Virus record (IMG/VR): IMGVR_UViG_3300031519_000013
Location: 1 to 64,000 of that record
Strand: one strand, 5' to 3'
Origin: a virus
Lineage: Duplodnaviria; Caudoviricetes
DNA: 64,000 nucleotides
How positions within the stretch are numbered: position 1 is the stretch's first letter; each line of letters starts with the position of its first letter. A program made the translations under genes and the position numbers. Shown here piece by piece: positions 2,462 to 19,525 of the stretch. The notes beneath the pieces were generated by a model. That model ran no database searches, was not told where the DNA came from, and was given only the letters and a program-made list of their open reading frames with translations.

Positions 2462-2664
2462 TTAATTTGGACGCCCGTTACCATCACTACCTGGATGGAA
2501 AGACAAAATTTTGTATCAACAATGTCTGTGAATCAGTGTTGGGATATGGGTGGACAGATGATGGAAAGGAAATAACTGGATACTATGTTCAGACAGAAAA
2601 TCGTAGGCTTTTTTATAATTTGAATGAGCAGTTTATTTACATGAAAGAGATGGCATCTATATAA
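2458..2664 (+). CDS. Hypothetical protein
   Basis: ATGA overlap with the upstream gene. Confidence 0.6.
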   Translation: MINLDARYHHYLDGKTKFCINNVCESVLGYGWTDDGKEITGYYVQTENRRLFYNLNEQFIYMKEMASI

Positions 2665-2677
2665 GATAAAAAGATTC

Positions 2678-2848
2678 ATGGAAATTACTATTGCAGAGTT
2701 TCGTGCAAACTATGATGAGTATATGAGACGTATGGCAGAGGGAGAAGTATTTGCCATTACCGATATAGAACAGAATGCAGACTCTTTATATGAACCACTC
2801 GAAGACAACAGAGCAATTCCAATTGACATTGAGAGAGCGTCCTTCTAG
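2678..2848 (+). CDS. Small Phd/YefM-antitoxin-like protein (below the ORF track cutoff)
   Basis: Manual translation MEITIAEFRANYDEYMRRMAEGEVFAITDIEQ... (56 aa). Confidence 0.55.
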   Translation: MEITIAEFRANYDEYMRRMAEGEVFAITDIEQNADSLYEPLEDNRAIPIDIERASF

Positions 2849-2850
2849 GG

Positions 2851-2879
2851 TTGACAGGTTCTCTTTTTTACTGTAAAAT
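2851..2879 (+). promoter_or_regulatory. Sigma70-type promoter
   Basis: TTGACA-17nt-TAAAAT. Confidence 0.7.
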
Positions 2880-2901
2880 ACTAAGGCAAATCAAAAGACC
2901 A

Positions 2902-3105
2902 ATGTCTGTCTCCGAAAAGTTTCGTAAGTATCTTCCCCTTCTAGAAGAGACCGTGGAAGGATCTGTTTTTCTTGATCTTAAAAATCCTAAGCTCTACAAG
3001 AAAATTGTTAGGTATTATGCTAATGAAGGAATACAATTCTACGATGATGCTAATGACTATGGCACATTAGTCAAATGTCTAGCACAAGACCTGGGGAAAA
3101 ACTGA
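2902..3105 (+). CDS. Conserved cyanophage hypothetical protein
   Basis: Start moved to ATG 2902, downstream of the promoter; MSVSEKFRKYLPLLEE... Confidence 0.65.
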   Translation: MSVSEKFRKYLPLLEETVEGSVFLDLKNPKLYKKIVRYYANEGIQFYDDANDYGTLVKCLAQDLGKN

Positions 3106-3383
3106 TGAACGATCTAGATTCTAAGTCAGTTGCCTCAACAAAAACCATTGTTATTCACGAAAGATTTCCTTATCGTTTTGTACAAAGGGGTTATATTCAA
3201 CTCAACGGTCTTCCTGATCTGCGTTTGCAGAAAGCAAATGAGTATACTAAAACCTACTCAGACATCTATCTGTTCGACAATGCAGATCAGTTGCTTTTAG
3301 CAATTGAAGACCCTGAATATCCCAAGTGGTTAGATCCGCAAGGTGGGCCTTGTTATGTTACAGACTCGGTAGGTCGTTACTAA
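3105..3383 (+). CDS. Conserved cyanophage hypothetical protein
   Basis: TGATG coupling with the upstream stop; MNDLDSKSVASTKT... Confidence 0.65.
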   Translation: MNDLDSKSVASTKTIVIHERFPYRFVQRGYIQLNGLPDLRLQKANEYTKTYSDIYLFDNADQLLLAIEDPEYPKWLDPQGGPCYVTDSVGRY

Positions 3384-3412
3384 ATAGAAAAGTAGAAAAC
3401 ACTTTTGTCAAA

Positions 3413-3625
3413 ATGTCTCAACAATTTAACTCAGGAAAAGCAGCTAAGTCTGCATCCGGTGCAGCAATGTCAAAGTATGATGTTGAAGTTGAATCTAGAC
3501 TCCAAGCACTAGAATCAAAGGCACATGCAAAGTGCGATGGCGGTGGTGCTGGGATCACTCCTGAACTTGCTGCTAAAATTGAAGAACTGTATGATTGGTA
3601 TCAATATGCAAAAACTAATATCTGA
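3413..3625 (+). CDS. Hypothetical protein (possibly late-expressed)
   Basis: ATG 3413 preceded by CTAAATA at 3380-3386. Confidence 0.6.
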   Translation: MSQQFNSGKAAKSASGAAMSKYDVEVESRLQALESKAHAKCDGGGAGITPELAAKIEELYDWYQYAKTNI

Positions 3626-3717
3626 TTAGGATACGGTTTCTTGCTTCCGTGTAAAGAGCAAGTGGTGCGCTACATCCGCTTAGTTTCCTAATTCTATTTA
3701 AAAATTAGGTGGCGAGC
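3624..3717 (+). ncRNA. Tandem-pseudoknot leader RNA (manA-motif-like) at the head of the glycan operon
   Basis: Two 34-nt units of identical geometry (3634-3667, 3681-3714) with compensatory changes in both stems. Confidence 0.6.
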
Positions 3718-3739
3718 ATATTACGAATTGAACCATAAA

Positions 3740-4651
3740 ATGCAAAAAGTATACTGTATTGTGATGACTCGCAATGATGATCTCATCATTGAGCACTGGG
3801 TCAAGAAACATATCAATGTTTTTGATAAAATTTCTATTGTAGATGGATCTGATGGTGATTTCACACAGAGAGTGTGTGAAAAGTATGGTATCTTGTATAC
3901 CAAAGACCCGGAACCTACCGAGGAAAAACCATTTCATGAACAGTATTTGCGTGAAGCAGCGTTCAATTTGTTGAAACCCTATCTGACACCTGGTGATTGG
4001 ATAGCTTGTTTCATGCCCGATGAGTGGGTCTATCATGACCCAAGAGAGATTGTTGATATGGTTCCTGGTGCATTTCATAATGTGATTGCATGGAATCAAC
4101 TTAACATTCTCCCTCACCCCTCAGAGAAAGAAAAATATTTAAAGGGTATTGAGGAAGGAACATATAATCCTACCGAAGTGTTTAGACATTTTTGGCATAG
4201 AGACAACAATAAAACATGTTGTGAACCTAGAATGTTTAGGTATTCGGGTGATGAGGTTTGGACTCATCAAATTCCCTGGTCTGACAATGCGGTTGCTGGT
4301 AGAATTCAACCGATTAATAGAGATAATATTGCAAAGATTAAACCAACATACTTCCACTACAAGGTTTTTGATCTTGACCCTACCAAATATAAGGATGATG
4401 GGTTCGGTCACTTTGAAAAGAGTAATCTAAATACTGGCATCGGATATGGTAAAGGCATGTCCGAAAGAAAAATTGAATCTATCGAAGATTTATTTTTTGA
4501 TGAAGATAATATCTACTGTAACTTAGGAACTGATGATGATGGCGGAAATTACCTTCATGGGTATTGCGTCAGGATCAGTGATGATGGTATAATTCCAGAA
4601 GAGAATTACAACACAGTTGGTAATGATGAGGACGTTAGGTTAATTGTATGA
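3740..4651 (+). CDS. Glycosyltransferase, GT-A/GT2-like
   Basis: [24 protein letters not shown] and MPDEW (DxD-like) motifs. Confidence 0.7.
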
Positions 4652-5718
4652 AGAGAGCACTAATTACAGGAGTGACTGGGCAAGATGGTTCTTACCTTGC
4701 TGAGTTGCTTCTATCAAAGGGATATGAAGTGCATGGAATCAAACGAAGGAGTTCTTCTTTCAATACTGATCGTGTAAATCATATCTTTAACACAAGCAAA
4801 GACTTCACCATGCATTATGGTGATCTGACTGATGCAACAAATCTCATCCGAATCATTCAATTGGTTCAACCTGATGAGATCTACAATCTTGGAGCTCAGA
4901 GTCATGTAAAAGTGTCATTTGAAACACCAGAATACACTGCTAATAGTGATGCTATCGGCACTCTTAGGATACTTGAAGCTTTGCGTATCCTTGGTATGCA
5001 GAACAAGGTAAAGTTCTACCAGGCATCAACATCTGAGATGTATGGTTTGGTGCAGGAGAACCCTCAGTCTGAGACAACTCCTTTCTATCCACGGTCACCT
5101 TATGGTGTAGCAAAATTGTATGCTCACTGGATTGTAAAAAATTACCGTGAGTCCTATGGTATGTTTGCCTGCTCTGGTATCTTGTTTAATCATGAGTCTC
5201 CTCGTCGTGGTGAGACATTTGTGACTCGTAAGATCACCCGTGACCTTACCCGTGTGAACATGGGCATGTTGAAGACCCTTAAACTGGGTAATCTGGATGC
5301 TAAACGTGACTGGGGACATGCAAAAGATTATGTCCGTGCCATGTGGTTGATGTTGCAACAGGATAATCCTGATGACTATGTGATTTCCACTATGCAACAG
5401 ATCACTGTTCGTGAGTTTTGTGACCTGACTGCCAATGAACTTGGAATGTCACTTTATTGGCAGGGTAAAGGAGTCAATGAATACGCTGTTGATGTCAAAA
5501 GTGGAAAGAAAGTTATTGAAGTGAGTCCCCGTTACTTCCGAGATGCTGAGGTAGAGACTCTTCTTGGAGATTCTACCAAGGCACGTAAAGAACTTGGGTG
5601 GTATCCTGAGATAACTATCGAAGAGATGGTCGGAGAGATGGTAAGGAAAGACGTTGATTTTGCAAATCGTGAGGAATACCTAGCAAAAGGAGGGTTTAGT
5701 CGCTATGCATACGACTGA
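4648..5718 (+). CDS. gmd: GDP-mannose 4,6-dehydratase
   Basis: [41 protein letters not shown] motifs. Confidence 0.97.
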
Positions 5719-6634
5719 TAATATTTTTGTTGCTGGTCACAAAGGTCTTGTGGGATCAGCAATTGTTCGTTCTTTACGAGAGCAGGGATACAAAAATGTA
5801 TACTACATCCCACATCGAGACCTTGATCTTAGGGATGAAGATCTGACTTATGAATTTTTTAAGAAGACCAAACCAGATTATGTATTTCTAGCAGCTGCAA
5901 AATGTGGTGGTATTAAAGATAATATCAATCATCCTGTTCAGTTTCTCCAAGATAACTTGAAGATTCAGAACAGTGTTATTTCTGCTGCCCACAAAGTAAA
6001 AGTTAAGAAACTTTTGTTCCTTGGATCTGCTTGCATCTATCCAAAACAATGTGATCAACCAATCAAAGAAGAGTATCTCCTCTCTGGATACTTGGAACCG
6101 ACTAACGAAGCATATTCTATTGCTAAGATTGCTGGTATCAAACTATGTCAAGCATATAATAAACAGTATAACACTAATTTTATTTGTGCTCAACCATCGA
6201 ATGTCTATGGTCCTATGGATAATTTTAATCCAGAGACCAGCCATGTGATTGCTGGATTGCTTCATAGATTTCATCTTGCAAAACAATCTAAATCGGAATC
6301 GATTGAATGTTGGGGAACTGGATCAGCAAGACGTGAGTTTGTTTATGTTGAAGATCTTGCAGATGCTTTGATTTTTCTCATGAAGAACTATGATGATAGT
6401 GAGATTATAAACGTTGGTGTTGGACGTGATATTTCTATCAAAGAGCTTGTCGCACACATCGTGGATGTGGTAGAATATGAGGGTGGAATTAAATGGGACA
6501 CCAGCAAACCTGAGGGTATGAAACAACGTCTTCTTGACACCAGTAAATTGAATACTCTCGGGTGGAAACCCAAAATTAGTTTGGATCGCGGTCTTTATCT
6601 GACCTATGAATACTTTAAATTGGAGAATAAGTGA
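5705..6634 (+). CDS. wcaG: GDP-4-keto-6-deoxymannose epimerase/reductase (Fcl/WcaG/ColC family)
   Basis: [23 protein letters not shown] (Cys), YSIAK, SHVIAG (His), [10 protein letters not shown] motifs. Confidence 0.92.
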
Positions 6635-7803
6635 TGTATTGGCCTTTGATGGAGAACACGATCACATTTTCTGATCGTGTCAAGATGGCAGCATTTGTAA
6701 TGACCACAGGTCGGTTCACAAATGGACCACAAGTTCGTAAGTTTGAAAAGCAATGGTCTGAATGGTTGGGAGTCAATCATTCCTTGTATGTTTCTAGCGG
6801 TAGCACTGCTAATTCTTTGATCATTGAATCTGTCAAAGAGTATTATGGATTGAAGAACGGTGACAAAGTTCTTGTTCCTGCTACTACCTGGATGACCAAT
6901 GTCGCACCTGTAATTCAAGCAGGTCTGCAACCTATCTTCTGTGATATTAACCTACGCAATTTTTCTTTTGATGTTGATGAGTTGCAGTATGTTGCTGATC
7001 AACACCCAGACATTAAAGCAGTCTTTGTTACTCACCTGATTGGTCTTTCTGCACCACTAGAAACTATTCGTAGTATCTTCCCTGATGCTTTAATCCTAGA
7101 AGATGTATGTGAATCTCATGGGGTAGAAGGTCCACATGGCGAAAAACGTGGTAGTAATTCTATTGCTTCCTCATTTAGTTTTTACTTTGGACATCACATG
7201 ACCACCATCGAAGGTGGCATGGTATGCACAAACAATACTGAACTTTATGAAGTGATGAGACTAAAACGTAGTCATGGTATGGCACGTGAGGGTTCACCTG
7301 GTTTCTTTGATGAGTATAAGAAAGCGAATCCGGATATTGATCCAGCATTTTTGTTTATGACTGATGGATTCAACTTCCGCAATCATGAAATTTGTGCTGT
7401 TCTGGGACAGGCACAACTCAATCGATTGGATGAGAATATCAAAATTCGTAGAGAAAATTATCAGTATTACTACGATACCCTTCTCTATCCATCTCTGAGC
7501 AGCTACATGATTCCTGAGTATCAAATCAAGAATAGTAGTTTTTCATTCCCAATCATTCCTATTGAAGGTAATATAAAACTATTAAAGGCATTGCTCCGTA
7601 AGAATGAAATTGAGTATCGCCCTATTATCAGTGGTAATTTGTTACGTCATCCTGCATTTAAGAAATATAGTTTATGCACTGGACGTGAAAAATCTAACGT
7701 AGATTATCTCCATGAGAATGGATTGTATGTTGGTAATAGTCAGTTCGTTAATTTTCAACAAATTGATAAACTTAAAACTATCATGGAAGAAGTAAGTGTG
7801 TAA
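6631..7803 (+). CDS. PLP-dependent DegT-family enzyme with the ColD-type His active site (GDP-4-keto-6-deoxymannose 3-dehydratase-like)
   Basis: SSGSTAN, EDVCESHG, SFYFGHHMTTIEGG (His at the Schiff-base Lys position), RSHGM. Confidence 0.8.
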   Translation: MMYWPLMENTITFSDRVKMAAFVMTTGRFTNGPQVRKFEKQWSEWLGVNHSLYVSSGSTANSLIIESVKEYYGLKNGDKVLVPATTWMTNVAPVIQAGLQPIFCDINLRNFSFDVDELQYVADQHPDIKAVFVTHLIGLSAPLETIRSIFPDALILEDVCESHGVEGPHGEKRGSNSIASSFSFYFGHHMTTIEGGMVCTNNTELYEVMRLKRSHGMAREGSPGFFDEYKKANPDIDPAFLFMTDGFNFRNHEICAVLGQAQLNRLDENIKIRRENYQYYYDTLLYPSLSSYMIPEYQIKNSSFSFPIIPIEGNIKLLKALLRKNEIEYRPIISGNLLRHPAFKKYSLCTGREKSNVDYLHENGLYVGNSQFVNFQQIDKLKTIMEEVSV

Positions 7804-8200
7804 GGTATATCTTGCGGGTCCCATAGAGGGATGTACTGATGATGAGGTGCTTGTATGGAGACAGTCAGCAACTCTTTCACTGGGAAATGGTATCAAAGCA
7901 ATTTCTCCTGTTAAAATTGACAGTACCTTTGCTTCTGCTATTATCACACAAAATAAGTATGATGTAGCAGAGTGTGATGTTACACTTGCATACCTTCCAA
8001 AATGTATCAGCGACAGACGTTGTTCTTATGGAACAATTTGTGAGATTGCATGGGCTCATGCTCACAATAAACCAGTAGTAATTGTTTCGGATGATCCATA
8101 CATTCATGAGCACCCTGTGATTCAACAGATTGGTGTTCATTTTGCTGAGTTAAATAATGCTGTTGAGTATATTAATCAATTGCTGAGTCAACATGTATGA
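7796..8200 (+). CDS. Nucleoside 2-deoxyribosyltransferase/N-glycosidase-like protein
   Basis: VYLAGPI ... D ... SYGTICEIAWA ... KPVVIV pattern of the NDT fold. Confidence 0.7.
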   Translation: MCKVYLAGPIEGCTDDEVLVWRQSATLSLGNGIKAISPVKIDSTFASAIITQNKYDVAECDVTLAYLPKCISDRRCSYGTICEIAWAHAHNKPVVIVSDDPYIHEHPVIQQIGVHFAELNNAVEYINQLLSQHV

Positions 8201-8963
8201 TGTAGAATGTACTGGTGGTTTATCATCGGATGGTCAATATAAAAAGAGAGTTCATATTGCATATGACTCCATTTCATTTAAACTTGAATGTGATTTAAAT
8301 GTTTTGGTTCTATGTGAACCTCCATCTATTATTGACATTTCAGAACAAGTAAGAGAATACTATCAATCCTGGGATCTGATTCTGACATGGAGGGAGGATC
8401 TCCTTGATCTTCCTAACGCACGTAAATTTATTTTTGGATGTTGTTGGATTGATTGGAATACTTATCAAGATGTTGATAAATTAAAGACCATCTCCTTTAA
8501 TACTAGCGATAAGGGATATGCACCAGGTCATCAACTACGACAACAGATATGGGAAGGTCTTGGAGATGTGGATAATCTGAATGGATTTTCCATTATTAAA
8601 CATAGATCACCACCGCGAACACCGAACAAGAACTATTTGTTCGAGACTGCTAAATATCATATAGTCGTAGAGAACGAACAACGAAACAGCTGGATCACAG
8701 AGAAATTGATCGACTGTTTTGCCTCTAAGACCATTCCTATTTACTGGGGTGCATCCAACATCGGTGATTATTTCAACACCGATGGCATGATTATCTTTAA
8801 TACCATCGAAGAACTTAAAGATATCCTTGACAATCTTGATGAAAAGATTTATGATAGTCATGTAGAAGTTATAACAGAAAACTATGAAAAGTCCAAGCAG
8901 TATTGGGATTTTCATGCTCGCGTAAGAAAAACTATTGAGGATTACATAGACAATCATGACTAA
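8193..8963 (+). CDS. GT10 alpha-1,3-fucosyltransferase-like protein
   Basis: KYHIVVENE..SWITEKLIDCF..TIPIYWGA motif. Confidence 0.8.
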   Translation: MYDVECTGGLSSDGQYKKRVHIAYDSISFKLECDLNVLVLCEPPSIIDISEQVREYYQSWDLILTWREDLLDLPNARKFIFGCCWIDWNTYQDVDKLKTISFNTSDKGYAPGHQLRQQIWEGLGDVDNLNGFSIIKHRSPPRTPNKNYLFETAKYHIVVENEQRNSWITEKLIDCFASKTIPIYWGASNIGDYFNTDGMIIFNTIEELKDILDNLDEKIYDSHVEVITENYEKSKQYWDFHARVRKTIEDYIDNHD

Positions 8964-10017
8964 AACTGCACTTGTATGTGGTGCTGGTGGTTTCATCGGC
9001 AGTCACATGGTCCGTCGTTTGAAGAATGAAGGATACTGGGTACGTGGTGTTGATACCAAACGTCCAGAATACTCTGACACTGCTGCTGATGAATTTATTG
9101 TTGGCAATCTTACTGATCAAAAGTTTGTTGAGAGGGTAATTCTTTTCTCTGGTGAACAGGGCAACTTCTATCATCAAACTCCTGAAAATTTTCAAGAACC
9201 CTTTGATGAAATTTATCAATACGCTGCCGACATGGGTGGCGCTGGATATATTTTCAGTGGCGATAATGACTCTGAGGTCATGTATAATTCTGCCACAGTG
9301 AATCTGAATATCCTAAAAGCACAACTCGTTCTCAACCAAACGAAAGAAGTAAATAAAACCAAAATCTTTTACTCCTCCTCTGCCTGTATGTACCCTGAGT
9401 ATGCTCAGGAAGAAACAGATAATCCTGGATTGAGAGAATCTGATGCATATCCTGCTGGTCCTGACTCTGAATATGGTTGGGAGAAGTTGTTCTCTGAACG
9501 TCTGTATCTGACGTTCAATCGCAACCATGGCATTCCTGTTAGGATTGCTCGCTTTCATAACATCTATGGTCCTGATAGCACGTGGGATGGTGGTAAGGAG
9601 AAGTCTCCTGCTGCTATGTGCCGTAAGGTTGCATATGCTGAGGATGGTGGTACAATTGAGGTATGGGGTGATGGTGAACAGACTCGTTCATTCCTCTTTA
9701 TTGATGAATGTATCGAAGCCACCCGTCGCCTGATGAAGTCTGACTTCTTGGGACCTGTGAACATTGGTTCTGAGGAGATGGTATCTATTAATCATCTTGT
9801 TGAGACTGTTGCTAAGGTTGCTGGTAAGACCATCAATATTGAACACATTGATGGACCTTTGGGTGTACGTGGTCGCAACTCTAACAACGATTTAATTCGT
9901 GAGAAACTTGGATGGGATTTTAGCACTAGCCTAGAAGATGGTATTGCTCAGACCTTTGAATGGATTGAGGGTCAAATTGAACTTAAAAACAAAGAAGTAT
10001 TTCACGTAGCAGTATGA
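8956..10017 (+). CDS. GDP-mannose 3,5-epimerase-like SDR
   Basis: GAGGFIGSH, AADMGG, SSACMYP, YGWEK, RFHNIYGP, GGKEKSPAAMCRK, WGDGEQTRSF motifs. Confidence 0.85.
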   Translation: MTKTALVCGAGGFIGSHMVRRLKNEGYWVRGVDTKRPEYSDTAADEFIVGNLTDQKFVERVILFSGEQGNFYHQTPENFQEPFDEIYQYAADMGGAGYIFSGDNDSEVMYNSATVNLNILKAQLVLNQTKEVNKTKIFYSSSACMYPEYAQEETDNPGLRESDAYPAGPDSEYGWEKLFSERLYLTFNRNHGIPVRIARFHNIYGPDSTWDGGKEKSPAAMCRKVAYAEDGGTIEVWGDGEQTRSFLFIDECIEATRRLMKSDFLGPVNIGSEEMVSINHLVETVAKVAGKTINIEHIDGPLGVRGRNSNNDLIREKLGWDFSTSLEDGIAQTFEWIEGQIELKNKEVFHVAV

Positions 10018-10874
10018 AAACAGTAACTGTGCTTGGATCAAGTGGGCAAATTGGTGCCTACTTGACCACGTATCTTCGTGACAAAGGTTACAAGGTATAT
10101 GAACATGACATTGTGAGAAGTCCTTTGGAAGATATGACATATTTTCCAAACCAAGTTCTTGAAAGAAAAATTGAAGACAGTGATTTTGTTTTCTTCCTTG
10201 CATTTGATGTAGGTGGATCACGTTATCTTGCTAAGTATCAGCATACGTTTGACTTCATTAACAATAACACTAGGTTGATGGCACAAACGTTTGGTTTTTT
10301 GGAGAAGTATAAGAAACCTTTCGTGTTTGCATCATCTCAGATGAGTAACATGAGTTACTCTCCCTATGGTGTATTGAAACGTGTTGGTGAATTGTATACT
10401 CGTTCATTGAAAGGACTTACTGTCAAGTTCTGGAACGTGTATGGTATCGAATATGATGAAGAGAAGTCTCACGTCATTACTGACTTCATTCGTAAGGGAT
10501 TTGAGGTTGAAAATGGTGGCACTATTGAGATGTTGACTGACGGCACTGAGGAACGTCAGTTTCTTTACGCTGAGGATTGTTGTGAAGCACTTGAAGAAGT
10601 GATGAACTCCTTCTCCAACTTCAAGATCGATGATGAACTACACATCACATCGTTTAGATCTGAATCTATTAAAGATGTTGCTCAAATCATCATGGGACAA
10701 TTCAACATGATTAATAAAGAAGTACACTTTAAACCAGCAGAAGCAAAGGATACTGTCCAACAAAACAAAAAGAATGAAGCAAACACTTATATCACTGGAT
10801 GGTGGTTGCCGAAGACTACTATTCAACAAGGTATTGCAAAGGTCTTTAATCAAATGAGGGAAGAAAGAGAATGA
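10014..10874 (+). CDS. NAD-dependent epimerase/dehydratase (atypical SDR)
   Basis: GSSGQIG, FASS, YGVLK, FWNVYG, RQFLYAEDC motifs. Confidence 0.8.
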   Translation: MKTVTVLGSSGQIGAYLTTYLRDKGYKVYEHDIVRSPLEDMTYFPNQVLERKIEDSDFVFFLAFDVGGSRYLAKYQHTFDFINNNTRLMAQTFGFLEKYKKPFVFASSQMSNMSYSPYGVLKRVGELYTRSLKGLTVKFWNVYGIEYDEEKSHVITDFIRKGFEVENGGTIEMLTDGTEERQFLYAEDCCEALEEVMNSFSNFKIDDELHITSFRSESIKDVAQIIMGQFNMINKEVHFKPAEAKDTVQQNKKNEANTYITGWWLPKTTIQQGIAKVFNQMREERE

Positions 10875-11731
10875 GTATTGGATATAACGGACTAGGTAAC
10901 AACGGCCGCCTAGGCAATCAGATGTTCCAGTATGCTGCTCTACGTGGTATTGCAGCACATCGTGGGTTTGATTTTATGTTCCCACCTCCATATGATAGTG
11001 TAGATAATTATGCTATTCATGATTGTTTTAAACTGACCAATGTCTCTGATAGAAACATTGGATTCCATCCTTCTGAGCAGTATGCACAAGAGGGACAGTT
11101 TCATTTCAATGAAGGGTTATATAATGAACTTCCTGATGGTGTAAACCTTTATGGTTTCTATCAGACAATGAGGTATTGGCAAGATATTGAGAACGACATT
11201 CGTCAAGACTTTGAGTTTAAGAAAGGTATTCTTGAACCATGCAAAGAAATGATGGAGAGTTTTGATCAACGTCCCATCATGCTACATGTTCGTCGTGGTG
11301 ATCCTAATCTTGCAGACAAACGTGGATTCAAGTGGGCATATGTGAACCTACAAGATCAACATCCTGTTCAAACTCTGGAATACTATGAGCAGGCTCTGAG
11401 TAAGTTTGATGCAAATGTACCTGTCATTGTTTTCTCAGATTCTATTAACTGGTGTAAGGAGCAAGAGTTCTTCTCTGCTGATCGTTTTAATTTCTCTGAG
11501 TCTACTGAACAACATGAAGATGGTGCTCTTGTTCCTTTTGTTGATCTCTGTCTTATGTCTCTATGCGATGGTGGTATCACCGCTAATAGTTCACTATCAT
11601 GGTGGGGTGGATTCCTTCAACAGGAACGTACTCGCCCTCTGGTATCCCCAGTAAACTGGTTTGGACCTGCATATGCAAGTCATGATACCAAAGATCTTAT
11701 TCCTAGCAATCGTGATTGGATTAGATTATGA
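10871..11731 (+). CDS. GT11 alpha-1,2-fucosyl/colitosyltransferase-like protein
   Basis: GRLGNQMFQYA, LHVRRGD, VFSDS, NSSLSWWG motifs. Confidence 0.9.
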   Translation: MSIGYNGLGNNGRLGNQMFQYAALRGIAAHRGFDFMFPPPYDSVDNYAIHDCFKLTNVSDRNIGFHPSEQYAQEGQFHFNEGLYNELPDGVNLYGFYQTMRYWQDIENDIRQDFEFKKGILEPCKEMMESFDQRPIMLHVRRGDPNLADKRGFKWAYVNLQDQHPVQTLEYYEQALSKFDANVPVIVFSDSINWCKEQEFFSADRFNFSESTEQHEDGALVPFVDLCLMSLCDGGITANSSLSWWGGFLQQERTRPLVSPVNWFGPAYASHDTKDLIPSNRDWIRL

Positions 11732-12435
11732 ATAAAATTGCCGTTGTAACAGCATCAGTTGGTGCAGGTTTACCAATTGAGCAAAGTGTATTTGAAGGTG
11801 TAGATTATCACGCCTTCGTTGACCTTGATTCTGAAACGGAACTTCCTACTGAGACTATGTGGAGTTATCATGGTGTCCCACAATGGAGCATCGATAAGCA
11901 GTACATGGATCGTAGACATGCGAAGATTTTTAAGATTCTTCCTCATCTCTTTCTACCTGGATACGATTACTATATTTGGATTGACTCTACTCACATGGTT
12001 GGAATGAATCCCAACCAGATTATTGAGATGTATTTGAAGGATTCTGACATCGCATTGTTCAAACATCCTGAACGTGATTGTGTATATGATGAAGGAGATA
12101 TTATTCAAGGAGTGAAGTTTGATAAAGGATATAATGTTCAGTCTCAAATGAACTTCTATGAATCAACTTCTTATCCTAGGAACAATGGATTGTATGAGTT
12201 GCCATGTAGAATCCAGAGAAACACTGGACAAATCCAAGCACTTATGCTAACCTGGTGGGAGTTGATCTGCAAGTATTCTTCTAGGGACCAACTGAGTCTT
12301 CCGTTTGCGATGACTCTACATGATATCACTCCTGCTATCATGCCTGGTAATGCGAATGGAATCATGCGTAATAGCATTCTTCCCCAGATTAGAAACTCAA
12401 ATCACCGTAGAGTACACGACTTTTTTAATGTGTAG
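11728..12435 (+). CDS. DUF616/TOD1-MUCI70-like glycosyltransferase
   Basis: KIFKILPHLFLPGYDYYIWID, FKHPERDCVYDE, RDQLSLPF motifs. Confidence 0.75.
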   Translation: MNKIAVVTASVGAGLPIEQSVFEGVDYHAFVDLDSETELPTETMWSYHGVPQWSIDKQYMDRRHAKIFKILPHLFLPGYDYYIWIDSTHMVGMNPNQIIEMYLKDSDIALFKHPERDCVYDEGDIIQGVKFDKGYNVQSQMNFYESTSYPRNNGLYELPCRIQRNTGQIQALMLTWWELICKYSSRDQLSLPFAMTLHDITPAIMPGNANGIMRNSILPQIRNSNHRRVHDFFNV

Positions 12436-13759
12436 TTTCATTTTTTCAAGTAAAGAACCAACTTCTGATTCCAATCACTTAATGGTGCGCCGTGGTCCTG
12501 ACACGACAAACCTGATTGAGGTCGGGGGTTATTTCTTTATGCATAACTTACTCAGTATCACAGGTAAGTTTACTCCACAGCCTTTTGTGGATGAAGAACG
12601 TGAAGTTGTAGTCGTGTACAACGGAGAGATCTATAATGCTCATGGATATGATAGCGACGGTAATATAATCATTCCTCGTTATTTCCAGTATGGGTTTCGA
12701 ATGCCTAGACATTTGGATGGTGAATTTGCTATGTGTCTGGTTGACTATAAGAATCAAAAGATTATACTATCAACTGATGTGTTTGCGACTAAACCACTGT
12801 GGTGGTGTATAGAGGATGGTGAGATTGGTGTAGCTACATATGAGTCTGCGCTACTAGAACTTGGATTCAAAGAACCAAAGAAGATTCCTGCTAACACCAG
12901 AATGCTCATTGGGTTTGATACAAATATTAGGCAGTATTTTATTGAAGACAAAGGTACTTTGTTTGATTTTAATCTAGATCAAACAAAAAATTCTTTTGAT
13001 GATTGGAACGAAGCATTTGCTAACTCTATTCGTAAGAGAACAGAAAACTGTCGTGAGAAGATCTTTATTGGACTATCAAGTGGGTATGATAGTGGATCCA
13101 TTGCGTGTGAACTTCGTAATCAAGACGTTTCACATACTGCATATACTCTGACTGGAACTGAGAATCTTGAAGTTCTAAAAGCTAGACACGATCTTTTCAA
13201 GGAAGACTCTACACATAAAGTGTACACATTGCCTGAGCATGAGAGGGGATCTATTGTAAGTTACATTGCAAGAAATGTTGAACCATTTAAAAATACAATT
13301 CATTCTTCTTCATCCGATTACAATGAATATGGTATGGATATTGTTGATGATCATGGCGGCGGTTCTCTTGTATACGTTTGTGATAAAGCAATTAGAGATG
13401 GAAACAAAGTCTATCTCTCCGGTTCAGGTGCAGATGAAATCTTTTCGGACTATGGATTCGGAGGAGTAAAGAAGTATCAGCACAGTAACTTTGGTGGATT
13501 GTTTCCTGATGATCTAGAAACTATTTTTCCATGGGCATCATTCTATGGCAGTTCACAAGAGACATATATTGCAAAAGAAGAACATGTAGCTGGGTCTTTT
13601 GGTATTGAAACTCGATACCCATACCTGGATAAATATGTCGTGCAGGAGTTTCTTTCGCTCACTCCTGAGTTAAAAAATTCAAAATATAAGTCAGTTCTTT
13701 TTAATTACTTGACTCAAAATAATTATCCCTTCTGTGAAAACGAAAAGATTGGTTTCTGA
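12428..13759 (+). CDS. Asparagine-synthetase-like glutamine amidotransferase
   Basis: True start MCSF (Ntn Cys2) at 12428; RRGPD, YNGEIYN, LDGEFA, GLSSGYDS, SGSGADE motifs. Confidence 0.85.
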   Translation: MCSFIFSSKEPTSDSNHLMVRRGPDTTNLIEVGGYFFMHNLLSITGKFTPQPFVDEEREVVVVYNGEIYNAHGYDSDGNIIIPRYFQYGFRMPRHLDGEFAMCLVDYKNQKIILSTDVFATKPLWWCIEDGEIGVATYESALLELGFKEPKKIPANTRMLIGFDTNIRQYFIEDKGTLFDFNLDQTKNSFDDWNEAFANSIRKRTENCREKIFIGLSSGYDSGSIACELRNQDVSHTAYTLTGTENLEVLKARHDLFKEDSTHKVYTLPEHERGSIVSYIARNVEPFKNTIHSSSSDYNEYGMDIVDDHGGGSLVYVCDKAIRDGNKVYLSGSGADEIFSDYGFGGVKKYQHSNFGGLFPDDLETIFPWASFYGSSQETYIAKEEHVAGSFGIETRYPYLDKYVVQEFLSLTPELKNSKYKSVLFNYLTQNNYPFCENEKIGF

Positions 13760-13760
13760 A

Positions 13761-14582
13761 ATGACAAATGAATTTAAAGATATTACCCCTGGTAATGGAA
13801 TTCGCGCAGGTAAGTATGGTGGATGGAATTTCTCAACAGAAGAGAACTTCCAATTTAGTAACCTAGGAACAAACCTTCTTGCTCTATCTCGTATTGTAGA
13901 TAAGTGTGGAGATAATAATACCTTTGTTGACCTTGGGGTTGACTTTGGTGTTTCTTCTCTATGCCTCACCTATGATTCTATTGAAAGGCACAATCAAGTT
14001 TACGGTATCGATACACAGTTCAAAAGAACTGGATTTGATCTTTGGGATTTCCCCAACTACAATATGATCGAAGGTGATAGTTCTAGTGTTGGAAAGCATT
14101 GGGATACATCTGAGTATGGTAAGGTAAAACTTTTATTTGTTGATTCGATTCATGTTGCAGCACAAGTAGCAACTGAACTTTATCATTGGTATCCTCACAT
14201 GGAGGATGACAGTTGGATTGTTTTTCATGATACTAACTGGCCTGAGGGTATGCATGACTTAACATGGCACCCTAAGGTGCAAGAGTCTGGTATCAAATGG
14301 GATCGTCCTGAGATTGCTGTTGGACTGTTCTTTGGTATTACTGATCTCTTTGATCAGTATCGTAATCAAGGATTCAGGTACGAAGATGAATTTATCAGGG
14401 TTCGTCATCGTCCAGAGTCATGGGGATTGACCTCTGTTCATATCAAGAAGAAGAAAGATTATGTTTCTAACATTGACGCGGAAGACTGGAATAAGATCTT
14501 TGAAGATCGTAATGAAGTAATTTCATATTTCCAGAACGAACCTGATGCTTTTGTAATTGAGGACATTAGAAATAATGAGTGA
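13761..14582 (+). CDS. Class I SAM-dependent methyltransferase (Methyltransf_24-like)
   Basis: FVDLGVDFGVS, GDS, LLFVDSIH, IVFHDT motifs. Confidence 0.75.
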   Translation: MTNEFKDITPGNGIRAGKYGGWNFSTEENFQFSNLGTNLLALSRIVDKCGDNNTFVDLGVDFGVSSLCLTYDSIERHNQVYGIDTQFKRTGFDLWDFPNYNMIEGDSSSVGKHWDTSEYGKVKLLFVDSIHVAAQVATELYHWYPHMEDDSWIVFHDTNWPEGMHDLTWHPKVQESGIKWDRPEIAVGLFFGITDLFDQYRNQGFRYEDEFIRVRHRPESWGLTSVHIKKKKDYVSNIDAEDWNKIFEDRNEVISYFQNEPDAFVIEDIRNNE

Positions 14583-15459
14583 GAATGTAAAACATATGCA
14601 CATCTGTTGCGACGGTAGTTTTGGCAACAGATATAGTGGGTTGATTGGTGGACTTACTTTGGCAAGGTTATGTGGTCTACCAGCAACCATCAGTTGGCCT
14701 AGTACAAATATGTGTCGTGCTCTTTGGGATGATATCTTTGCTCCAAGGGAAAATGTAGTTGATTGGAGACTCAAAGAATTCTTTCCTCATGTAGAGAAGT
14801 ATGATTTCTTGACTGTATCTGATCAGCATGTCGGTCTGTTTAGAGATCATGGTAATATGAGAATGGTTGATCCAGGCACTCTTACCTTGGAGCAAGCATG
14901 TATCTCTGTTGCTAATAGTCAGAAGAACATCTTCTACTACACACCATTGATCTATGATTGGTTGCCTGAGAATGAAGTTCGGAACACTATCCGAGAACTT
15001 CTATTCAACAAGGATATTATGGCAGTAGTTGCTAATTATCTTTCAAAAAATCTACAAGGTGGTTACTATGGTATTCATCTTCGCATGACCGACTTCAAAG
15101 GTATCGAAGATTTCGACGTTGATTTCTGGTATAATACTGTCGAAAAAGACACTCAAAATAAATTCTTTATTTGTTCAGATGATCCATCGACTGAGGCGCG
15201 TTTTAGCGGACTACCGAATGCTTTCTCTTATCCGAAAGAATACAAAACAGAAAAGTTCATTGAGGATGGAGATTGGCACCATCCGTACACTGATGAAGAT
15301 GGAAGAAGTTCGGTCTTTAATGTCGAAAGAGGAACAGAACATGTCAAAGAAGCAGTCATCGACTTCCTTCTCCTCTCGCTTTCGCAACCGTTTGACACGG
15401 GGGTCCAAAGCACTTTCCTCAGGATGGCAAAACGTGTTGGATCGGCTTTCAAATCATGA
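14575..15459 (+). CDS. NodZ/GT23-like fucosyltransferase-fold protein
   Basis: DGSFGNRY, GIHLRMTD, FFICSDD, AVIDFLLLS pattern. Confidence 0.65.
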   Translation: MSENVKHMHICCDGSFGNRYSGLIGGLTLARLCGLPATISWPSTNMCRALWDDIFAPRENVVDWRLKEFFPHVEKYDFLTVSDQHVGLFRDHGNMRMVDPGTLTLEQACISVANSQKNIFYYTPLIYDWLPENEVRNTIRELLFNKDIMAVVANYLSKNLQGGYYGIHLRMTDFKGIEDFDVDFWYNTVEKDTQNKFFICSDDPSTEARFSGLPNAFSYPKEYKTEKFIEDGDWHHPYTDEDGRSSVFNVERGTEHVKEAVIDFLLLSLSQPFDTGVQSTFLRMAKRVGSAFKS

Positions 15460-16202
15460 ATGATATCTCCATTGCGGTTCCTGCATATGAGATGAAAGGA
15501 TATGGTGGTAAGTATCTAAAAGAACTTTTTTCCAGTATCAATAAACAATCTTATAAGGATGTTGAAGTCGTTGTTTCTGACCACTCACGTGGTAACATGG
15601 ATGTTTATAATGCATGTAAACAATACTCTGAAAAACTTCGTATTGTTTACATTCAAAACTTTTATGATCGTGGTAATGGACCAGCAAATACAAACTTTGC
15701 ACTTAAAAGGTGTACTGGTAGTATAATCAAAATCATGTTTCAGGATGATCTATTCATTGATAATCTAGCTTTGATGAAGATCTACGGAAAATTCCTAGAT
15801 ACTGATACATCTTGGGTGGTTACTGGATTCAATCACACTCAGGATGGCAAAGAGTTTTATAGACCCATGGTTCCTCGTTGGTCTGAGCATCTGTTAGAGG
15901 GACAAAATTTTATGGGCGGACCTTCCATCGTAACGATGAGAAGAGAAGCATTAGAGTTCTTTGATCCTGAATGCAAGATGCTAATGGACACAGAGTTCTA
16001 TCATAGAATGAGATATGATCACGGTATGCCGGAGATCATTGAAGATGTTCTTGTTTCTAGTCGAGAAGGTGACTATCGAATTTCTGCAAATCTTGATCTT
16101 GATATTGTTTGCCAGCATCCCGATGGATCATGGGAAGCAAACAGTAAAGAGTTAGAGTATGTTACTGACAAACATAGATACACAAGAAATTATGAAACAT
16201 GA
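15456..16202 (+). CDS. GT2 glycosyltransferase
   Basis: SIAVPAYE, VVVSDHS, GPANTN, IMFQDD motifs. Confidence 0.85.
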   Translation: MNDISIAVPAYEMKGYGGKYLKELFSSINKQSYKDVEVVVSDHSRGNMDVYNACKQYSEKLRIVYIQNFYDRGNGPANTNFALKRCTGSIIKIMFQDDLFIDNLALMKIYGKFLDTDTSWVVTGFNHTQDGKEFYRPMVPRWSEHLLEGQNFMGGPSIVTMRREALEFFDPECKMLMDTEFYHRMRYDHGMPEIIEDVLVSSREGDYRISANLDLDIVCQHPDGSWEANSKELEYVTDKHRYTRNYET

Positions 16203-17025
16203 TTTAAAAAACGCAACCTTTATTATGCCTCTCAGAATTGAGAGTGAAGATCGTTTGCGTAACATTGTTCTTAGTCTTGCGTACCTCTTGAAAAATTTTG
16301 ATACTAATGTTATCATTGAAGAGGTAGATGAGGACTCTAAGTTTCAGCAGTATGCTGCTCCTCAACTAGAAAAATTAGTTGATGATATGTCAAAGGTGAC
16401 TTTGATCTATGAAGAGAGTAAAGATCCTGTCTTCCATCGTACTAGAATCCTCAACGATATGTTGATGGAATCAAAGACTGATGTTGTAGTTAACTATGAT
16501 ACAGATGTAATTTTCCCAATCAGTAGCTATAATATTGCATATAATATGATCCTGAAAGAAGGATATGATTTAGTTTATCCATATGGTCAGGGTCATTATC
16601 AGGAGAAAGTTACTGTCAACCAGAAACTCATTCACAGTCTGATTGATAGTGACTTCTCCGAAAACTCATTTGCAAATCATCCTGATACAGAAAACTCTAC
16701 TTCTGATTATGGATGGGCACAGTTCTTCAATCGTCAATCTTATATTGATGGTGGTATGGAGAATGAAAACTTTATCTCATATGGTTATGAGGATAATGAA
16801 AGACCTGAACGATTTGAAAAACTTGGATACAAAGTCGGAAGAGTTGATCAGGCAATCTATCATATGGAACACGTCAGAACTATGAATTCTTGGTTTACTA
16901 ATCCACATATCGAAAACAATAAACAACTCTATAATGATCTGAGAGCAAAAGAACCTGGTGAATTAAAAGAGTATTACAAAAACGTTGAATACATGATTAA
17001 GAGGCTAAGTCATGGAAAGAAATAA
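16192..17025 (+). CDS. GT2/GT7-like glycosyltransferase
   Basis: NYDTD (DxD) and GGMENENFISYGYEDNE (GT7 C-terminal-like). Confidence 0.75.
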   Translation: MKHDLKNATFIMPLRIESEDRLRNIVLSLAYLLKNFDTNVIIEEVDEDSKFQQYAAPQLEKLVDDMSKVTLIYEESKDPVFHRTRILNDMLMESKTDVVVNYDTDVIFPISSYNIAYNMILKEGYDLVYPYGQGHYQEKVTVNQKLIHSLIDSDFSENSFANHPDTENSTSDYGWAQFFNRQSYIDGGMENENFISYGYEDNERPERFEKLGYKVGRVDQAIYHMEHVRTMNSWFTNPHIENNKQLYNDLRAKEPGELKEYYKNVEYMIKRLSHGKK

Positions 17026-17836
17026 ATCAGCTTACAAACTCAAAGGTATTCCTCCTGTTCTTTGGATCAATCTTGATGGTGATGAAGAACGTCAGAAACA
17101 TATGGAGGATCAGTTTGCTGACTGGGAAATTACTGATCACACACGTATCTCTGGCATTGATGCCAGGATCGAAGGTGAGTTTGAGGATCATCTAAGTGGA
17201 ACTGTTCCACATACGATGATCGCTAATGAGATTGGGTGTTGTATGTCTCACCTTAAAGCAATCAAATACTTCATTGAGGAGATGGATTGTGATGAGGTGA
17301 TGATCATGGAGGATGATGCATTCTTTGAGACTGTGAGATACTGGCCTTTCACATACAAGGAGGCAGCAACTTATTTTCCTTACAACTATGATGCTATGCA
17401 GTTGACCACCATCAATCCTGCTGTGGTATACGTGACACTACACAATCGTTTTATTAATGATTTTTCTGCTGCTGTATATGTTCTAAAAAGACATCATGCA
17501 GAGAAGATTTACAAGCATCATGTTAGAAAGAATAAGTTTAAACTTGATACTGATGTGAGACCTCGTGCCACATCAGAAGATATCATCTTTGAGAGTGGTA
17601 AGGTGTACTGTATTCCTATGTTCTTGTATCGTCTGGACCTTGGATCATCAATCCACCCAGAGCATATTGACATATTTCACCGGAACAGTTATAATGGTAT
17701 CTCGAACTTCTGGGTTGAGTCTGGAAGCATCGATGACTGGAAAACATTATTCAACTGGAACTGCTATCTTGGCAGATTACCACCCGGATATGATGAAAAT
17801 GGCAAGATTGAAGGGCATCCCGTCCACAATCAGTAG
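17012..17836 (+). CDS. GT25 glycosyltransferase
   Basis: WINLD..ER, GIDA, EIGCCMSH, IMEDDA motifs. Confidence 0.85.
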   Translation: MERNKSAYKLKGIPPVLWINLDGDEERQKHMEDQFADWEITDHTRISGIDARIEGEFEDHLSGTVPHTMIANEIGCCMSHLKAIKYFIEEMDCDEVMIMEDDAFFETVRYWPFTYKEAATYFPYNYDAMQLTTINPAVVYVTLHNRFINDFSAAVYVLKRHHAEKIYKHHVRKNKFKLDTDVRPRATSEDIIFESGKVYCIPMFLYRLDLGSSIHPEHIDIFHRNSYNGISNFWVESGSIDDWKTLFNWNCYLGRLPPGYDENGKIEGHPVHNQ

Positions 17837-17853: not shown

Positions 17854-17887
17854 TTGACAAATTCTTTCTTTTCCAGTAGTATAAATA
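17854..17887 (+). promoter_or_regulatory. Overlapping sigma70 and T4-late-type promoters
   Basis: TTGACA-17nt-TAGTAT overlapped by TATAAATA (17880-17887). Confidence 0.6.
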
Positions 17888-17992: not shown

Positions 17993-18358
17993 ATGTTCAA
18001 ATCTGTATTCGCAGCACTGTCTGCAACCGCTTTCTCCGCCACCGCTGCCCTAGCCGGTCCCTACGTTAACGTAGAAACCAATGCTGGTTGGGTAGGCGAT
18101 GACTACACCGCTGCGACCACGGACCTTCACGTTGGATTTGAAGGCGAAGTAGGTGCTGCTGGATACTACGTCCAGGCTGGCCCTGCAATCGTCGCTGTTG
18201 ATGGCGAAGATACTGACACCCAGTTCTCTGGTAAAGCAGGAGTTGGCCTTCCCGTCTCCGATGCTCTTGGAGTATATGGTGAGATGTCCTTCCTGACCGC
18301 AGAAGACGATGATGACTTCGGTCTTGGTGGTAAGTTGGGCGTCAAGTACAACTTCTGA
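17993..18358 (+). CDS. Small outer-membrane beta-barrel-like protein
   Basis: Signal peptide (…AALA-G), amphipathic strands, C-terminal GVKYNF Phe. Confidence 0.7.
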   Translation: MFKSVFAALSATAFSATAALAGPYVNVETNAGWVGDDYTAATTDLHVGFEGEVGAAGYYVQAGPAIVAVDGEDTDTQFSGKAGVGLPVSDALGVYGEMSFLTAEDDDDFGLGGKLGVKYNF

Positions 18359-18396: not shown

Positions 18397-18422
18397 GGGG
18401 GTGCGACGGCATCCCCTTTTTT
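18397..18422 (+). terminator. Rho-independent terminator
   Basis: GGGGGTGC/GCATCCCC stem followed by T6. Confidence 0.75.
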
Positions 18423-19341: not shown

Positions 19342-19371
19342 CAGGGGTCTTTTTTTCTGTTATTATAAATA
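19332..19371 (+). terminator. Terminator with embedded -35 box (psbA promoter) and late promoter
   Basis: GACCCCT-TGAC-AGGGGTC-T7; TTGACA-17nt-TATTAT; TATAAATA at 19364-19371. Confidence 0.75.
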
Positions 19372-19421
19372 AGTCAGCAAGTTAAGAAACCAACACATTT
19401 CTTAACGCTTCGTAACACCTG

Positions 19422-19525
19422 TTAACCGAGACCTATTGGGTGTATAAAAACGTCTCTCATATCCCCGGCTGAGGGTGCTGGGGAAATAGTAACTCCACCA
19501 TTCCCTGATGGTCTTACTTTTTTTA
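19422..19525 (+). ncRNA. psbA 5' leader RNA, PhotoRC-II-motif-like
   Basis: GAGAC/GTCTC, CCCCGGC/GCTGGGG and CCAT/ATGG pairings directly upstream of psbA; name from established association. Confidence 0.6.

Follow-up and report, generated by a model that had tools for sequence, protein, structure and literature searches.

The DNA considered here, referred to as the window, comprises positions 1 to 64,000 of an IMG/VR contig of 84,031 bp (IMGVR_UViG_3300031519_000013; G000 below) whose completeness is estimated at 41%. The closest matches of the contig's proteins are in T4-like myoviruses of Synechococcus and Prochlorococcus, and the window also carries psbA, psbD, a RimK-like gene and genes for a baseplate hub, a tail tube, other tail proteins and a 1990-aa tail fibre. 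From this phage-type gene content together with the best matches we assign the contig to an uncultured cyanomyovirus. The subject of this report is the region between positions 3740 and 17836, which is occupied by 16 co-directional open reading frames (ORFs) devoted to glycan building. There are no intergenic gaps, and all 15 junctions overlap by 4 to 26 nt; the original prediction, made from the sequence alone, had described 16 overlapping or tightly coupled genes, and this is borne out at every junction. It had overlooked a full-length wcaG RNA motif at the operon head, which matches RF01761 at 65.9 bits (gathering score 42) over model positions 1–98 of 98 and ends 17 nt before the g1 ATG. 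The region is a single translationally coupled operon headed by a wcaG RNA. The motif was described in PMC2864571; it heads glycan clusters in 7 of the 14 related loci scanned and is also found in this position in the isolate S-SCSM1. The leader and the genes, designated g1 to g16, are as follows (GT, glycosyltransferase).

3632–3723, +: wcaG RNA motif (Rfam RF01761), operon leader, cis-regulatory riboswitch candidate
3740–4651, +: g1, lineage-specific GT-like protein with a GT-A fold (GT2/GT92-like); weak Pfam match to Glyco_tranf_2_4
4648–5718, +: g2, GDP-mannose 4,6-dehydratase (Gmd); TIGR01472, 558 bits against a cut-off of 415; PF16363, 2.6e-152
5705–6634, +: g3, GDP-4-keto-6-deoxymannose 3,5-epimerase/4-reductase of the Fcl (WcaG) type; NF047922
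6631–7803, +: g4, ColD-type GDP-4-keto-6-deoxymannose 3-dehydratase dependent on pyridoxal or pyridoxamine phosphate (PLP/PMP); PDB 2gms/3gr9 (E. coli ColD)
7796–8200, +: g5, nucleoside 2-deoxyribosyltransferase (NDT)-like accessory protein; PF05014, 30.9 bits against a cut-off of 28.8
8193–8963, +: g6, GT10-like (alpha-1,3/4-fucosyltransferase family); PF00852, 30.1 bits against 23.9; motif VVENEQRNSWITEK
8956–10017, +: g7, GDP-mannose 3,5-epimerase (GME; GDP-L-galactose/GDP-L-gulose); PDB 2c59, 1.5e-90
10014–10874, +: g8, divergent extended short-chain dehydrogenase/reductase (SDR) of 286 aa and uncharacterised specificity, partner of g7; assigned from its motif and relatives
10871–11731, +: g9, GT11 (alpha-1,2-fucosyltransferase family); PF01531, 3.8e-17; HVRRGD motif
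11728–12435, +: g10, GT-like protein of the TOD1/MUCI70 family (formerly DUF616); PF04765, 4.3e-16
12428–13759, +: g11, AsnB-type glutamine amidotransferase; GATase_7 and Asn_synthase matches
13734–14582, +: g12, S-adenosylmethionine-dependent methyltransferase (Methyltransf_24/CmcI, rhamnosyl O-methyltransferase-like); PF13578, 6.3e-12
14557–15459, +: g13, fucosyltransferase-fold enzyme (GT23/GT65-like), from an AlphaFold 2 (AF2) model; homologues carry PF10250
15456–16202, +: g14, GT2; PF00535, 1.7e-10
16159–17025, +: g15, phage-specific GT-A-like protein; phrog_15655, 1e-104; weak Glyco_transf_7C and beta4GalT1 matches
17012–17836, +: g16, GT25, the lipooligosaccharide (LOS) galactosyl/glucosyltransferase family; PF01755, 4e-10

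Nucleotide sugars and glycosyltransferases

Families were assigned through Pfam, NCBIfam, PDB and fold searches, and these agree with the earlier inventory of five sugar-nucleotide enzymes, eight GT-like proteins and three other proteins. The g3 protein scores 420 bits against NF047922, which is under the equivalog cut-off of 500, and is 50–51% identical to the gmd-adjacent gene of S-SCSM1 and of a second isolate, ACG-2014f; it may double as ColC. The g4 protein had been labelled a DegT aminotransferase, a label that has to be given up: it aligns end to end with ColD (2gms/3gr9; 1.9e-53), and alignment of its FGHHMTTIEGG with YSHHIATMEGG of ColD places a His where the catalytic Lys would otherwise be, the feature that marks out a 3-dehydratase. 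The operon therefore encodes both Gmd and a ColD with His for the PLP-binding Lys, two of the enzymes by which a GDP-L-colitose pathway is recognised.

The assignment of g8 draws on its relatives, which are found in 128 viral contigs. From these we kept 80 IMG/VR loci, and we refer below to 83 phage loci centred on g8 homologues (1.28 Mb in total), with 55 bacterial loci centred in the same way as a control. The GxxGxxG motif and the Ser/Tyr/Lys triad of g8 are invariant. We considered g8 as a candidate ColC and rejected this because it is widespread in loci without ColD and accompanies GME instead. A GME gene lies adjacent to or near g8 in 60/80 phage loci and in 35/55 bacterial loci, and because the two are neighbours in phages and bacteria alike, g8 most likely acts on the GME product. 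The bacterial hosts of the pair belong to many phyla (Prochlorococcus, Pelagibacteraceae, Patescibacteria, Verrucomicrobia and others), one Prochlorococcus genome having both genes at 62–65% identity. This conserved pairing of GME and SDR points to an undescribed two-step GDP-L-sugar pathway. Together with the GT11 gene it forms a widespread core (g7-g8-g9), with g9 following g8 in 64 and g7 present in 60 of the 80 phage loci.

Three of the transferases belong to the fucosyltransferase superfamily (g6, g9 and g13). When g13 and g15 were compared with PDB sequences by profile, the matches were marginal for both, and g13 was settled by fold search. Its AF2 model has a predicted local distance difference test score (pLDDT) of 90.6, and the Foldseek matches listed are all to POFUT1, NodZ, FUT8, POFUT2 and plant FUT1 (best E 9e-8), that is, to GDP-fucose-dependent enzymes only. 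The model of g1 (pLDDT 74.8) has GalS1 (GT92) and SunS as its top folds; the nearest ESM Atlas clusters are viral GT2, and only 11 protein clusters were found overall. The g15 family is present in 41 of the 80 phage loci, and g16 is 43–44% identical to the last cluster gene of S-SCSM1 and ACG-2014f. Translation probably begins at 14575 in g13 and is likely to begin at 16192 in g15.

The start of g11 had been called at 12320 and is corrected here to 12428, where the ATG gives a Met-Cys N-terminus (MCSF); the alignment of the S-SCSM1 homologue begins at residue 33 of the longer ORF. With the corrected start the sole hydrophobic segment found disappears. The g10 and g11 genes are coupled here and in S-SCSM1, as would be expected if the pair transferred a uronic acid and amidated it.

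Membrane functions, conservation and related islands

None of the 16 operon proteins has a membrane helix, defined as a Kyte-Doolittle value of at least 1.6 in a 19-residue window (the control, PsbA, reaches 2.63), in keeping with the earlier statement that none has a multi-transmembrane profile. A test for signal peptides using short hydrophobic windows was set aside as non-discriminating, Rossmann beta-1 strands scoring like the signal peptide of an outer-membrane protein. Neither WecA, WbaP, Wzx, Wzy/WaaL, ManB nor ManC has a family match in the 84-kb contig, which is 41% complete. Because 59% of the genome is missing, the window alone is insufficient to argue that export is lacking, and four further records were therefore tested: G001, a 194,408-bp contig that holds one of the related loci (L004) and is 100% complete by CheckV; G002, a contig of 124,555 bp rated 59% complete; and the isolates S-SCSM1 and ACG-2014f.

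Wzx (PF01943), Wzy/WaaL (PF04932), WecA/MraY (PF00953), WbaP/PglC (PF02397) and Wza (PF02563) are without a match in all five records, including the complete G001, and the positive controls matched. Matches to ABC_tran (PF00005) are mere P-loop stretches in proteins of 577 aa and about 320 aa. A hydropathy scan that does not depend on families found no polytopic ORF, such as a Wzm-like permease with at least five hydrophobic segments, in the whole of G001 or in the 83 phage loci other than PsbA and PsbD. By contrast, ORFs with at least five hydrophobic segments occur in 44/55 bacterial loci; ten of these were compared with Pfam, four matching Polysacc_synt (Wzx) and two Wzy_C, including one from a Prochlorococcus genome; the other four were unmatched. 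On the strength of 0/83 phage loci against 44/55 bacterial loci, the lack of membrane parts is a general property of the phage versions: each membrane step retained in the bacterial counterparts is gone from them. The statement of the original prediction that the window has no initiating transferase, Wzx, Wzy or ligase can therefore be extended to the complete G001, S-SCSM1, ACG-2014f and the 83 phage loci, and the search for flippase or initiating GT genes that it proposed beyond the window has found none in the 84-kb contig or in its complete relative.

The precursor is likewise expected to come from the host. ManB (PF02878) has no match in the five records and ManC (PF00483) matches in G002 alone; in view of this lack, and with that one exception, dependence on host GDP-mannose is supported, as had been claimed. 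A small mannose-6-phosphate isomerase (MPI) cupin is encoded elsewhere in G001 and S-SCSM1, and the host possesses a bifunctional MPI/GDP-mannose pyrophosphorylase (PMC9602691).

The operon is well conserved in its own lineage. In three environmental relatives (L003, L004 and L006) at least 15 of the 16 genes are present and their order is kept, with amino-acid identities of 68–90%; L004, on its complete contig, has 15, and a truncated locus (L005) has the first eight. The g5 gene is present in L005 and L006 and missing in L003 and L004. All 16 ORFs are intact with their catalytic motifs kept, and the ratio of nonsynonymous to synonymous substitution rates (dN/dS) against L004 and L006 is 0.03–0.15 for every gene, with synonymous sites close to saturation; all 16 genes are under strong purifying selection.

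Glycan islands of cyanophages follow a position rule, lying near hli/psbA and tRNAs (PMC3037559). The present region has a T4-like cyanophage setting and lies before psbA, the window containing two tRNAs and one tRNA lying upstream of the operon. It is accordingly a variable 'LPS-like/cell-wall modification' (LPS, lipopolysaccharide) glycan island of a T4-like cyanomyovirus, of a kind already known. The islands of P-SSM2, S-SSM7, S-SM2, S-SCSM1, S-SCSM2R and ACG-2014f occupy the same slot, after tRNAs/talC and before hli, psbA and psbD, and likewise have no membrane genes. The 'LPS' islands of large cyanophages have reportedly been known since the sequencing of P-SSM2 in 2005.

Genes for gmd, fcl, GME, the g8 SDR, GT11, GT2, GT25, the TOD1-like GT with AsnB, and a NodZ-like GT are held in common with these islands. 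The g8 homologues of P-SSM2, P-SSM5, S-SSM7, S-SCSM2R, S-B05 and others are 59–68% identical (59–66% for P-SSM2, S-SSM7 and S-SCSM2R). The S-SCSM1 cluster consists of 15 genes, likewise behind a wcaG RNA, and has 10 of the 16 genes at 31–68% identity, arranged differently; in ACG-2014f five are shared, among them a ColD-type gene at 54% that is annotated there as hypothetical. Unlike these islands, the present lineage has in addition the g1 GT-A, GT10-like, NDT-like and CmcI-like methyltransferase genes, and combines ColD with GME; it lacks the MPI, the carbamoyltransferase and the 2-oxoglutarate (2OG)-Fe(II) oxygenases encoded around the S-SCSM1 cluster. The megablast search of the 14-kb region against phage records gave no match. 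The present case adds to what is known of these islands the strong purifying selection indicated by dN/dS, the loss of the membrane steps from the phage versions, the widespread GME-SDR-GT11 core, the riboswitch-candidate RNA that is often at the head of such operons, and the match between three GDP-L-sugar donors and three fucosyltransferase-type enzymes.

The operon also resembles bacterial Wzx/Wzy loci for O-antigen and capsule, such as those for GDP-colitose in E. coli O55/O111 and the wca locus for colanic acid, in its Gmd, its Fcl/ColC-type reductase, its ColD with His for Lys, its GT11-type transferases and its tight organisation. It differs from them in lacking Wzx, Wzy, Wzz, ManB, ManC and an initiating transferase, and in being encoded by a lytic phage, whereas bacterial loci with the g7-g8 module have Wzx or Wzy.

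The acceptor of the glycan

We propose, with a probability of a little under one half (about 0.45), that the chain is built on a host lipid-linked glycan and exported by host machinery. The sugar pathway steps are well supported by homology and motifs. Gmd would convert host GDP-mannose to GDP-4-keto-6-deoxymannose, from which the Fcl-type reductase would give GDP-L-fucose and a pathway including the ColD-type dehydratase GDP-L-colitose, while the 3,5-epimerase would provide GDP-L-galactose (or GDP-L-gulose) for further modification by the g8 SDR. The three fucosyltransferase-superfamily enzymes (GT10, GT11 and GT23/65-like) would then be matched to three GDP-L-sugar donors, with five more GT-A enzymes, the methyltransferase and the amidotransferase extending and decorating the chain. 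Assembly may take place at the cytoplasmic face on lipid A-core or on an undecaprenyl-diphosphate (Und-PP)-linked sugar of the host, followed by export through a host flippase or ATP-binding cassette (ABC) transporter, ligase and the Lpt pathway. In this model the phage would supply the specificity-determining soluble parts alone and the host all membrane steps, and alteration or masking of its surface receptors would protect the infected cell from superinfection and keep progeny from being lost on debris.

The families involved are those expected for such a route. GT25, GT11, GT10 and GT2 are usual in LOS and O-antigen synthesis, and core/LOS-type and Und-PP-linked assembly both require only soluble or peripheral transferases, the host's WecA, Wzx or ABC transporter, WaaL and MsbA completing the process. 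E. coli given soluble GT cassettes alone displays a new glycan by way of its own WecA, Wzx and WaaL, as glycoengineering has established. The bacterial g7-g8 homologues, including those of Prochlorococcus, sit in Wzx/Wzy-type surface-polysaccharide loci. The original prediction was right that the system is soluble, export-less and fed by host GDP-mannose, but glycosylation of the virion does not follow from this; its step from missing export genes to a capsid or fibre acceptor is unsupported, as soluble transferases also serve host-completed LOS and Und-PP assembly. A host-surface role has been proposed, untested, in PMC9602691, PMC12801897 and PMC7029224.

Two further features bear on the timing and surroundings of expression.

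2851–2879, +: sigma-70-type promoter-like site, TTGACA-17-TAAAAT (11/12), the closest strong candidate ahead of the operon
17993–18358, +: cyanophage outer-membrane beta-barrel protein, neighbour of the operon; PF24653, 1.9e-48

The first may be an early or middle promoter and is a lead only, as the overall count of sigma-70-like sites is not above chance. The T4-type late motif TATAAATA, in strict form, was not found in 2500–17800, a range that includes the operon head, and its relaxed form, ATAAATA, is found a single time, at 13629 within g11. The barrel protein has a signal-peptide-like N-terminus and a C-terminal Phe, and homologues of its gene are present in 25 of the 83 related loci, mostly a few kb downstream of g8. 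The gene has early- and late-type motifs of its own upstream (a sigma-70-like site and TATAAATA at 17880), and a strong terminator-like hairpin follows it at 18397–18416. No + strand terminator-like site was found between g16 and this gene, which is possibly co-transcribed with the operon. The absence of a late motif at the operon head, the sigma-70-like site upstream and the barrel gene downstream with no terminator between support the route through the host envelope.

The function proposed here, a change of surface glycan against superinfection, is that of the serotype-converting modules of other phages (Shigella gtrABC and oac, Pseudomonas D3 iap/wzy-beta, Salmonella epsilon15). These consist of one to three genes and act at the periplasmic face through integral membrane proteins, in contrast to the 16 soluble proteins of this operon.

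Several points weigh against this proposal. All phage O-antigen converters known to us (Gtr, Oac, Wzy/Iap) have membrane proteins, and no such protein is found here or in the 83 related loci. As host surface glycans are hypervariable and phages of this kind can have broad host ranges, a fixed host acceptor is not obvious, and as infected picocyanobacteria barely grow, the old receptors would not be diluted. A g8 orthologue occurs in only one of 301 sampled host-family genomes, and g16 has no match at 1e-5 in the 301, although the GT25 family is present in 39–44 of them; the transferases are therefore not simply borrowed host O-antigen genes. The phage GT homologues are all acidic (pI 4.5–7.1, with none of about 200 exceeding 7.5); of the host GT25 proteins, by contrast, 5/10 are basic. 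Two of these lines of enquiry were tried as indicators and rejected. The isoelectric point is no test of membrane association, as the phage proteome has a median pI of 5.4 with 14–22% basic ORFs, and eight acidic transferases are not significant against it; and a GT25 without a host match says little about the acceptor.

If the host-envelope proposal is correct, these phages would, in the course of infection, remodel the receptors displayed by the most abundant phototrophs.

The principal alternative, which we regard as rather unlikely, is autonomous cytoplasmic glycosylation of capsid, tail or fibre proteins, with one transferase priming and the rest extending. A strain-variable, methylated oligosaccharide with much L-fucose, L-colitose and L-galactose would be the product, and the virion would carry it out of the cell. 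Virion proteins are glycosylated in this manner by chloroviruses, by mimiviruses and by some mycobacteriophages, the last according to Freeman et al. 2023 as cited in PMC12801897. With PBCV-1, mimivirus and these mycobacteriophages the operon has in common that the virus itself encodes a GDP-mannose 4,6-dehydratase with its reductase, a number of soluble transferases and a sugar methyltransferase, and like them it would be independent of host membrane glycosylation machinery, the virus-encoded soluble GTs and sugar-nucleotide enzymes being characteristic of virion-glycosylation systems. The likeness is one of gene content; in those viruses the glycans on virion proteins have been demonstrated chemically. 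The systematic absence of membrane parts described above is in line with such an arrangement, and the phage's own proteins would be the only acceptor constant across hosts, which suits a broad host range. The uniform acidity of the transferases may be counted on this side as well, with the same reservation about the acidic phage proteome.

The structural matches are equivocal. The g13 protein folds like POFUT1, a protein O-fucosyltransferase, and equally like NodZ, and g1 is weakly similar to SunS, a peptide S-glycosyltransferase, but fold matches do not separate protein from glycan acceptors. A tail-tube-family protein (phrog_45; 35115–35954) has a 30-residue Ser/Thr-rich C-terminal tract (residues 216–245) that is probably disordered; such segments are of the kind O-glycosylated in mycobacteriophage tail and capsid proteins. 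Ser/Thr-rich structural tracts were nevertheless rejected as evidence for the acceptor, as this single tract differs in, and is not conserved by, the closest complete relative G001, which has the same cluster. Collagen-like repeats, considered as hydroxylysine-glycosylation targets because of the GT25 and the 2OG oxygenases of S-SCSM1, are found in neither G000 nor G001.

The operon has no late promoter motif at its head and sits in the auxiliary-metabolic-gene region, some 17 kb away from any structural gene, in contrast to mycobacteriophages, where GT genes lie beside structural genes. A literature search found no report of glycosylated cyanophage virions and no usable transcriptome from infections with phages that bear such clusters, and published virion proteomes of cluster-bearing phages noted no glycosylation. 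On present evidence, therefore, virion or protein glycosylation is less likely than the host lipid-linked route, both having been named in the original prediction. Were it correct, these would be tailed phages of Gram-negative hosts with virion glycosylation of eukaryotic-virus complexity, a bacterial-virus counterpart of the chlorovirus and mimivirus systems, in which hypervariability of the cluster would amount to a virion 'serotype' affecting host range, stickiness or grazing. Isolates with homologous clusters exist, and both acceptor readings are open to bench testing.

It is improbable that the operon instead alters host physiology during infection through some other product, such as a glycolipid, an oligosaccharide in soluble form or an altered constituent of the cell wall (for example an exopolysaccharide primer or peptidoglycan that has been amidated). 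The wcaG RNA leader suggests control by a metabolite or by conditions, as is typical of auxiliary metabolic genes; amidation of peptidoglycan is another activity of AsnB-type enzymes; the S-SCSM1 version has added NodU-like carbamoyltransferase and NodZ-like genes; and no gene that would define an acceptor was found. However, eight transferases with three matching rare-sugar donors favour a defined, surface-exposed, antigen-like glycan over a metabolite, and no polymerising synthase of the NodC, cellulose or hyaluronan type, all of which are membrane proteins, is found in G001 or the 83 phage loci.

Glycosylation of the phage DNA against restriction, as PMC12801897 suggested for S-SCSM2R, is very improbable. 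The transferases of T-even phages do glycosylate DNA, and the NDT-like g5 would be a nucleotide-handling protein inside the operon, but the closest relatives, L003 and L004, do not have g5, an eight-transferase chain with fucosyltransferase-type enzymes is without precedent on DNA, and the pyrimidine hydroxymethylase of the ThyA/gp42 family (PF00303) is lacking in all five records, complete G001 included, which by itself makes this function unlikely. The least probable reading is that the region is non-functional stuffer DNA for headful packaging, a question left undecided for such genes in 2010 (PMC3037559) and answered for this lineage by dN/dS of 0.03–0.15, together with the intact ORFs and catalytic motifs and the gene order kept in environmental relatives.

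Neighbouring features

Upstream of the operon lies the following gene.

1122–1769: talC, in the window

A small ORF of the JmjC/cupin-like (2OG-oxygenase) type at 1766–2209 is translationally coupled to talC; in S-SCSM1 many 2OG-Fe(II) oxygenases are interleaved among the sugar genes. Closer to the leader are two small conserved phage ORFs, phrog_481 (3075–3383) and phrog_35121 (3413–3625); of the 83 related loci, 44 and 22 respectively have them in the same position, shortly before a glycan cluster or a wcaG RNA. An abiF RNA motif (RF03085, 54 bits) lies at 5044–5080 of two related loci (L044 and L046), within a tRNA array upstream of the glycan cluster.

On the other side, a PhotoRC-II RNA (RF01717, 77.6 bits) is situated at 19403–19497, immediately before psbA, and is itself preceded, at a distance of about 30 nt, by a TATAAATA motif at 19364. 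In a related cyanophage contig (G002) the group I intron model (RF00028) matches at 50.6 bits beside PhotoRC-II/psbA (L019, 19559–19770).

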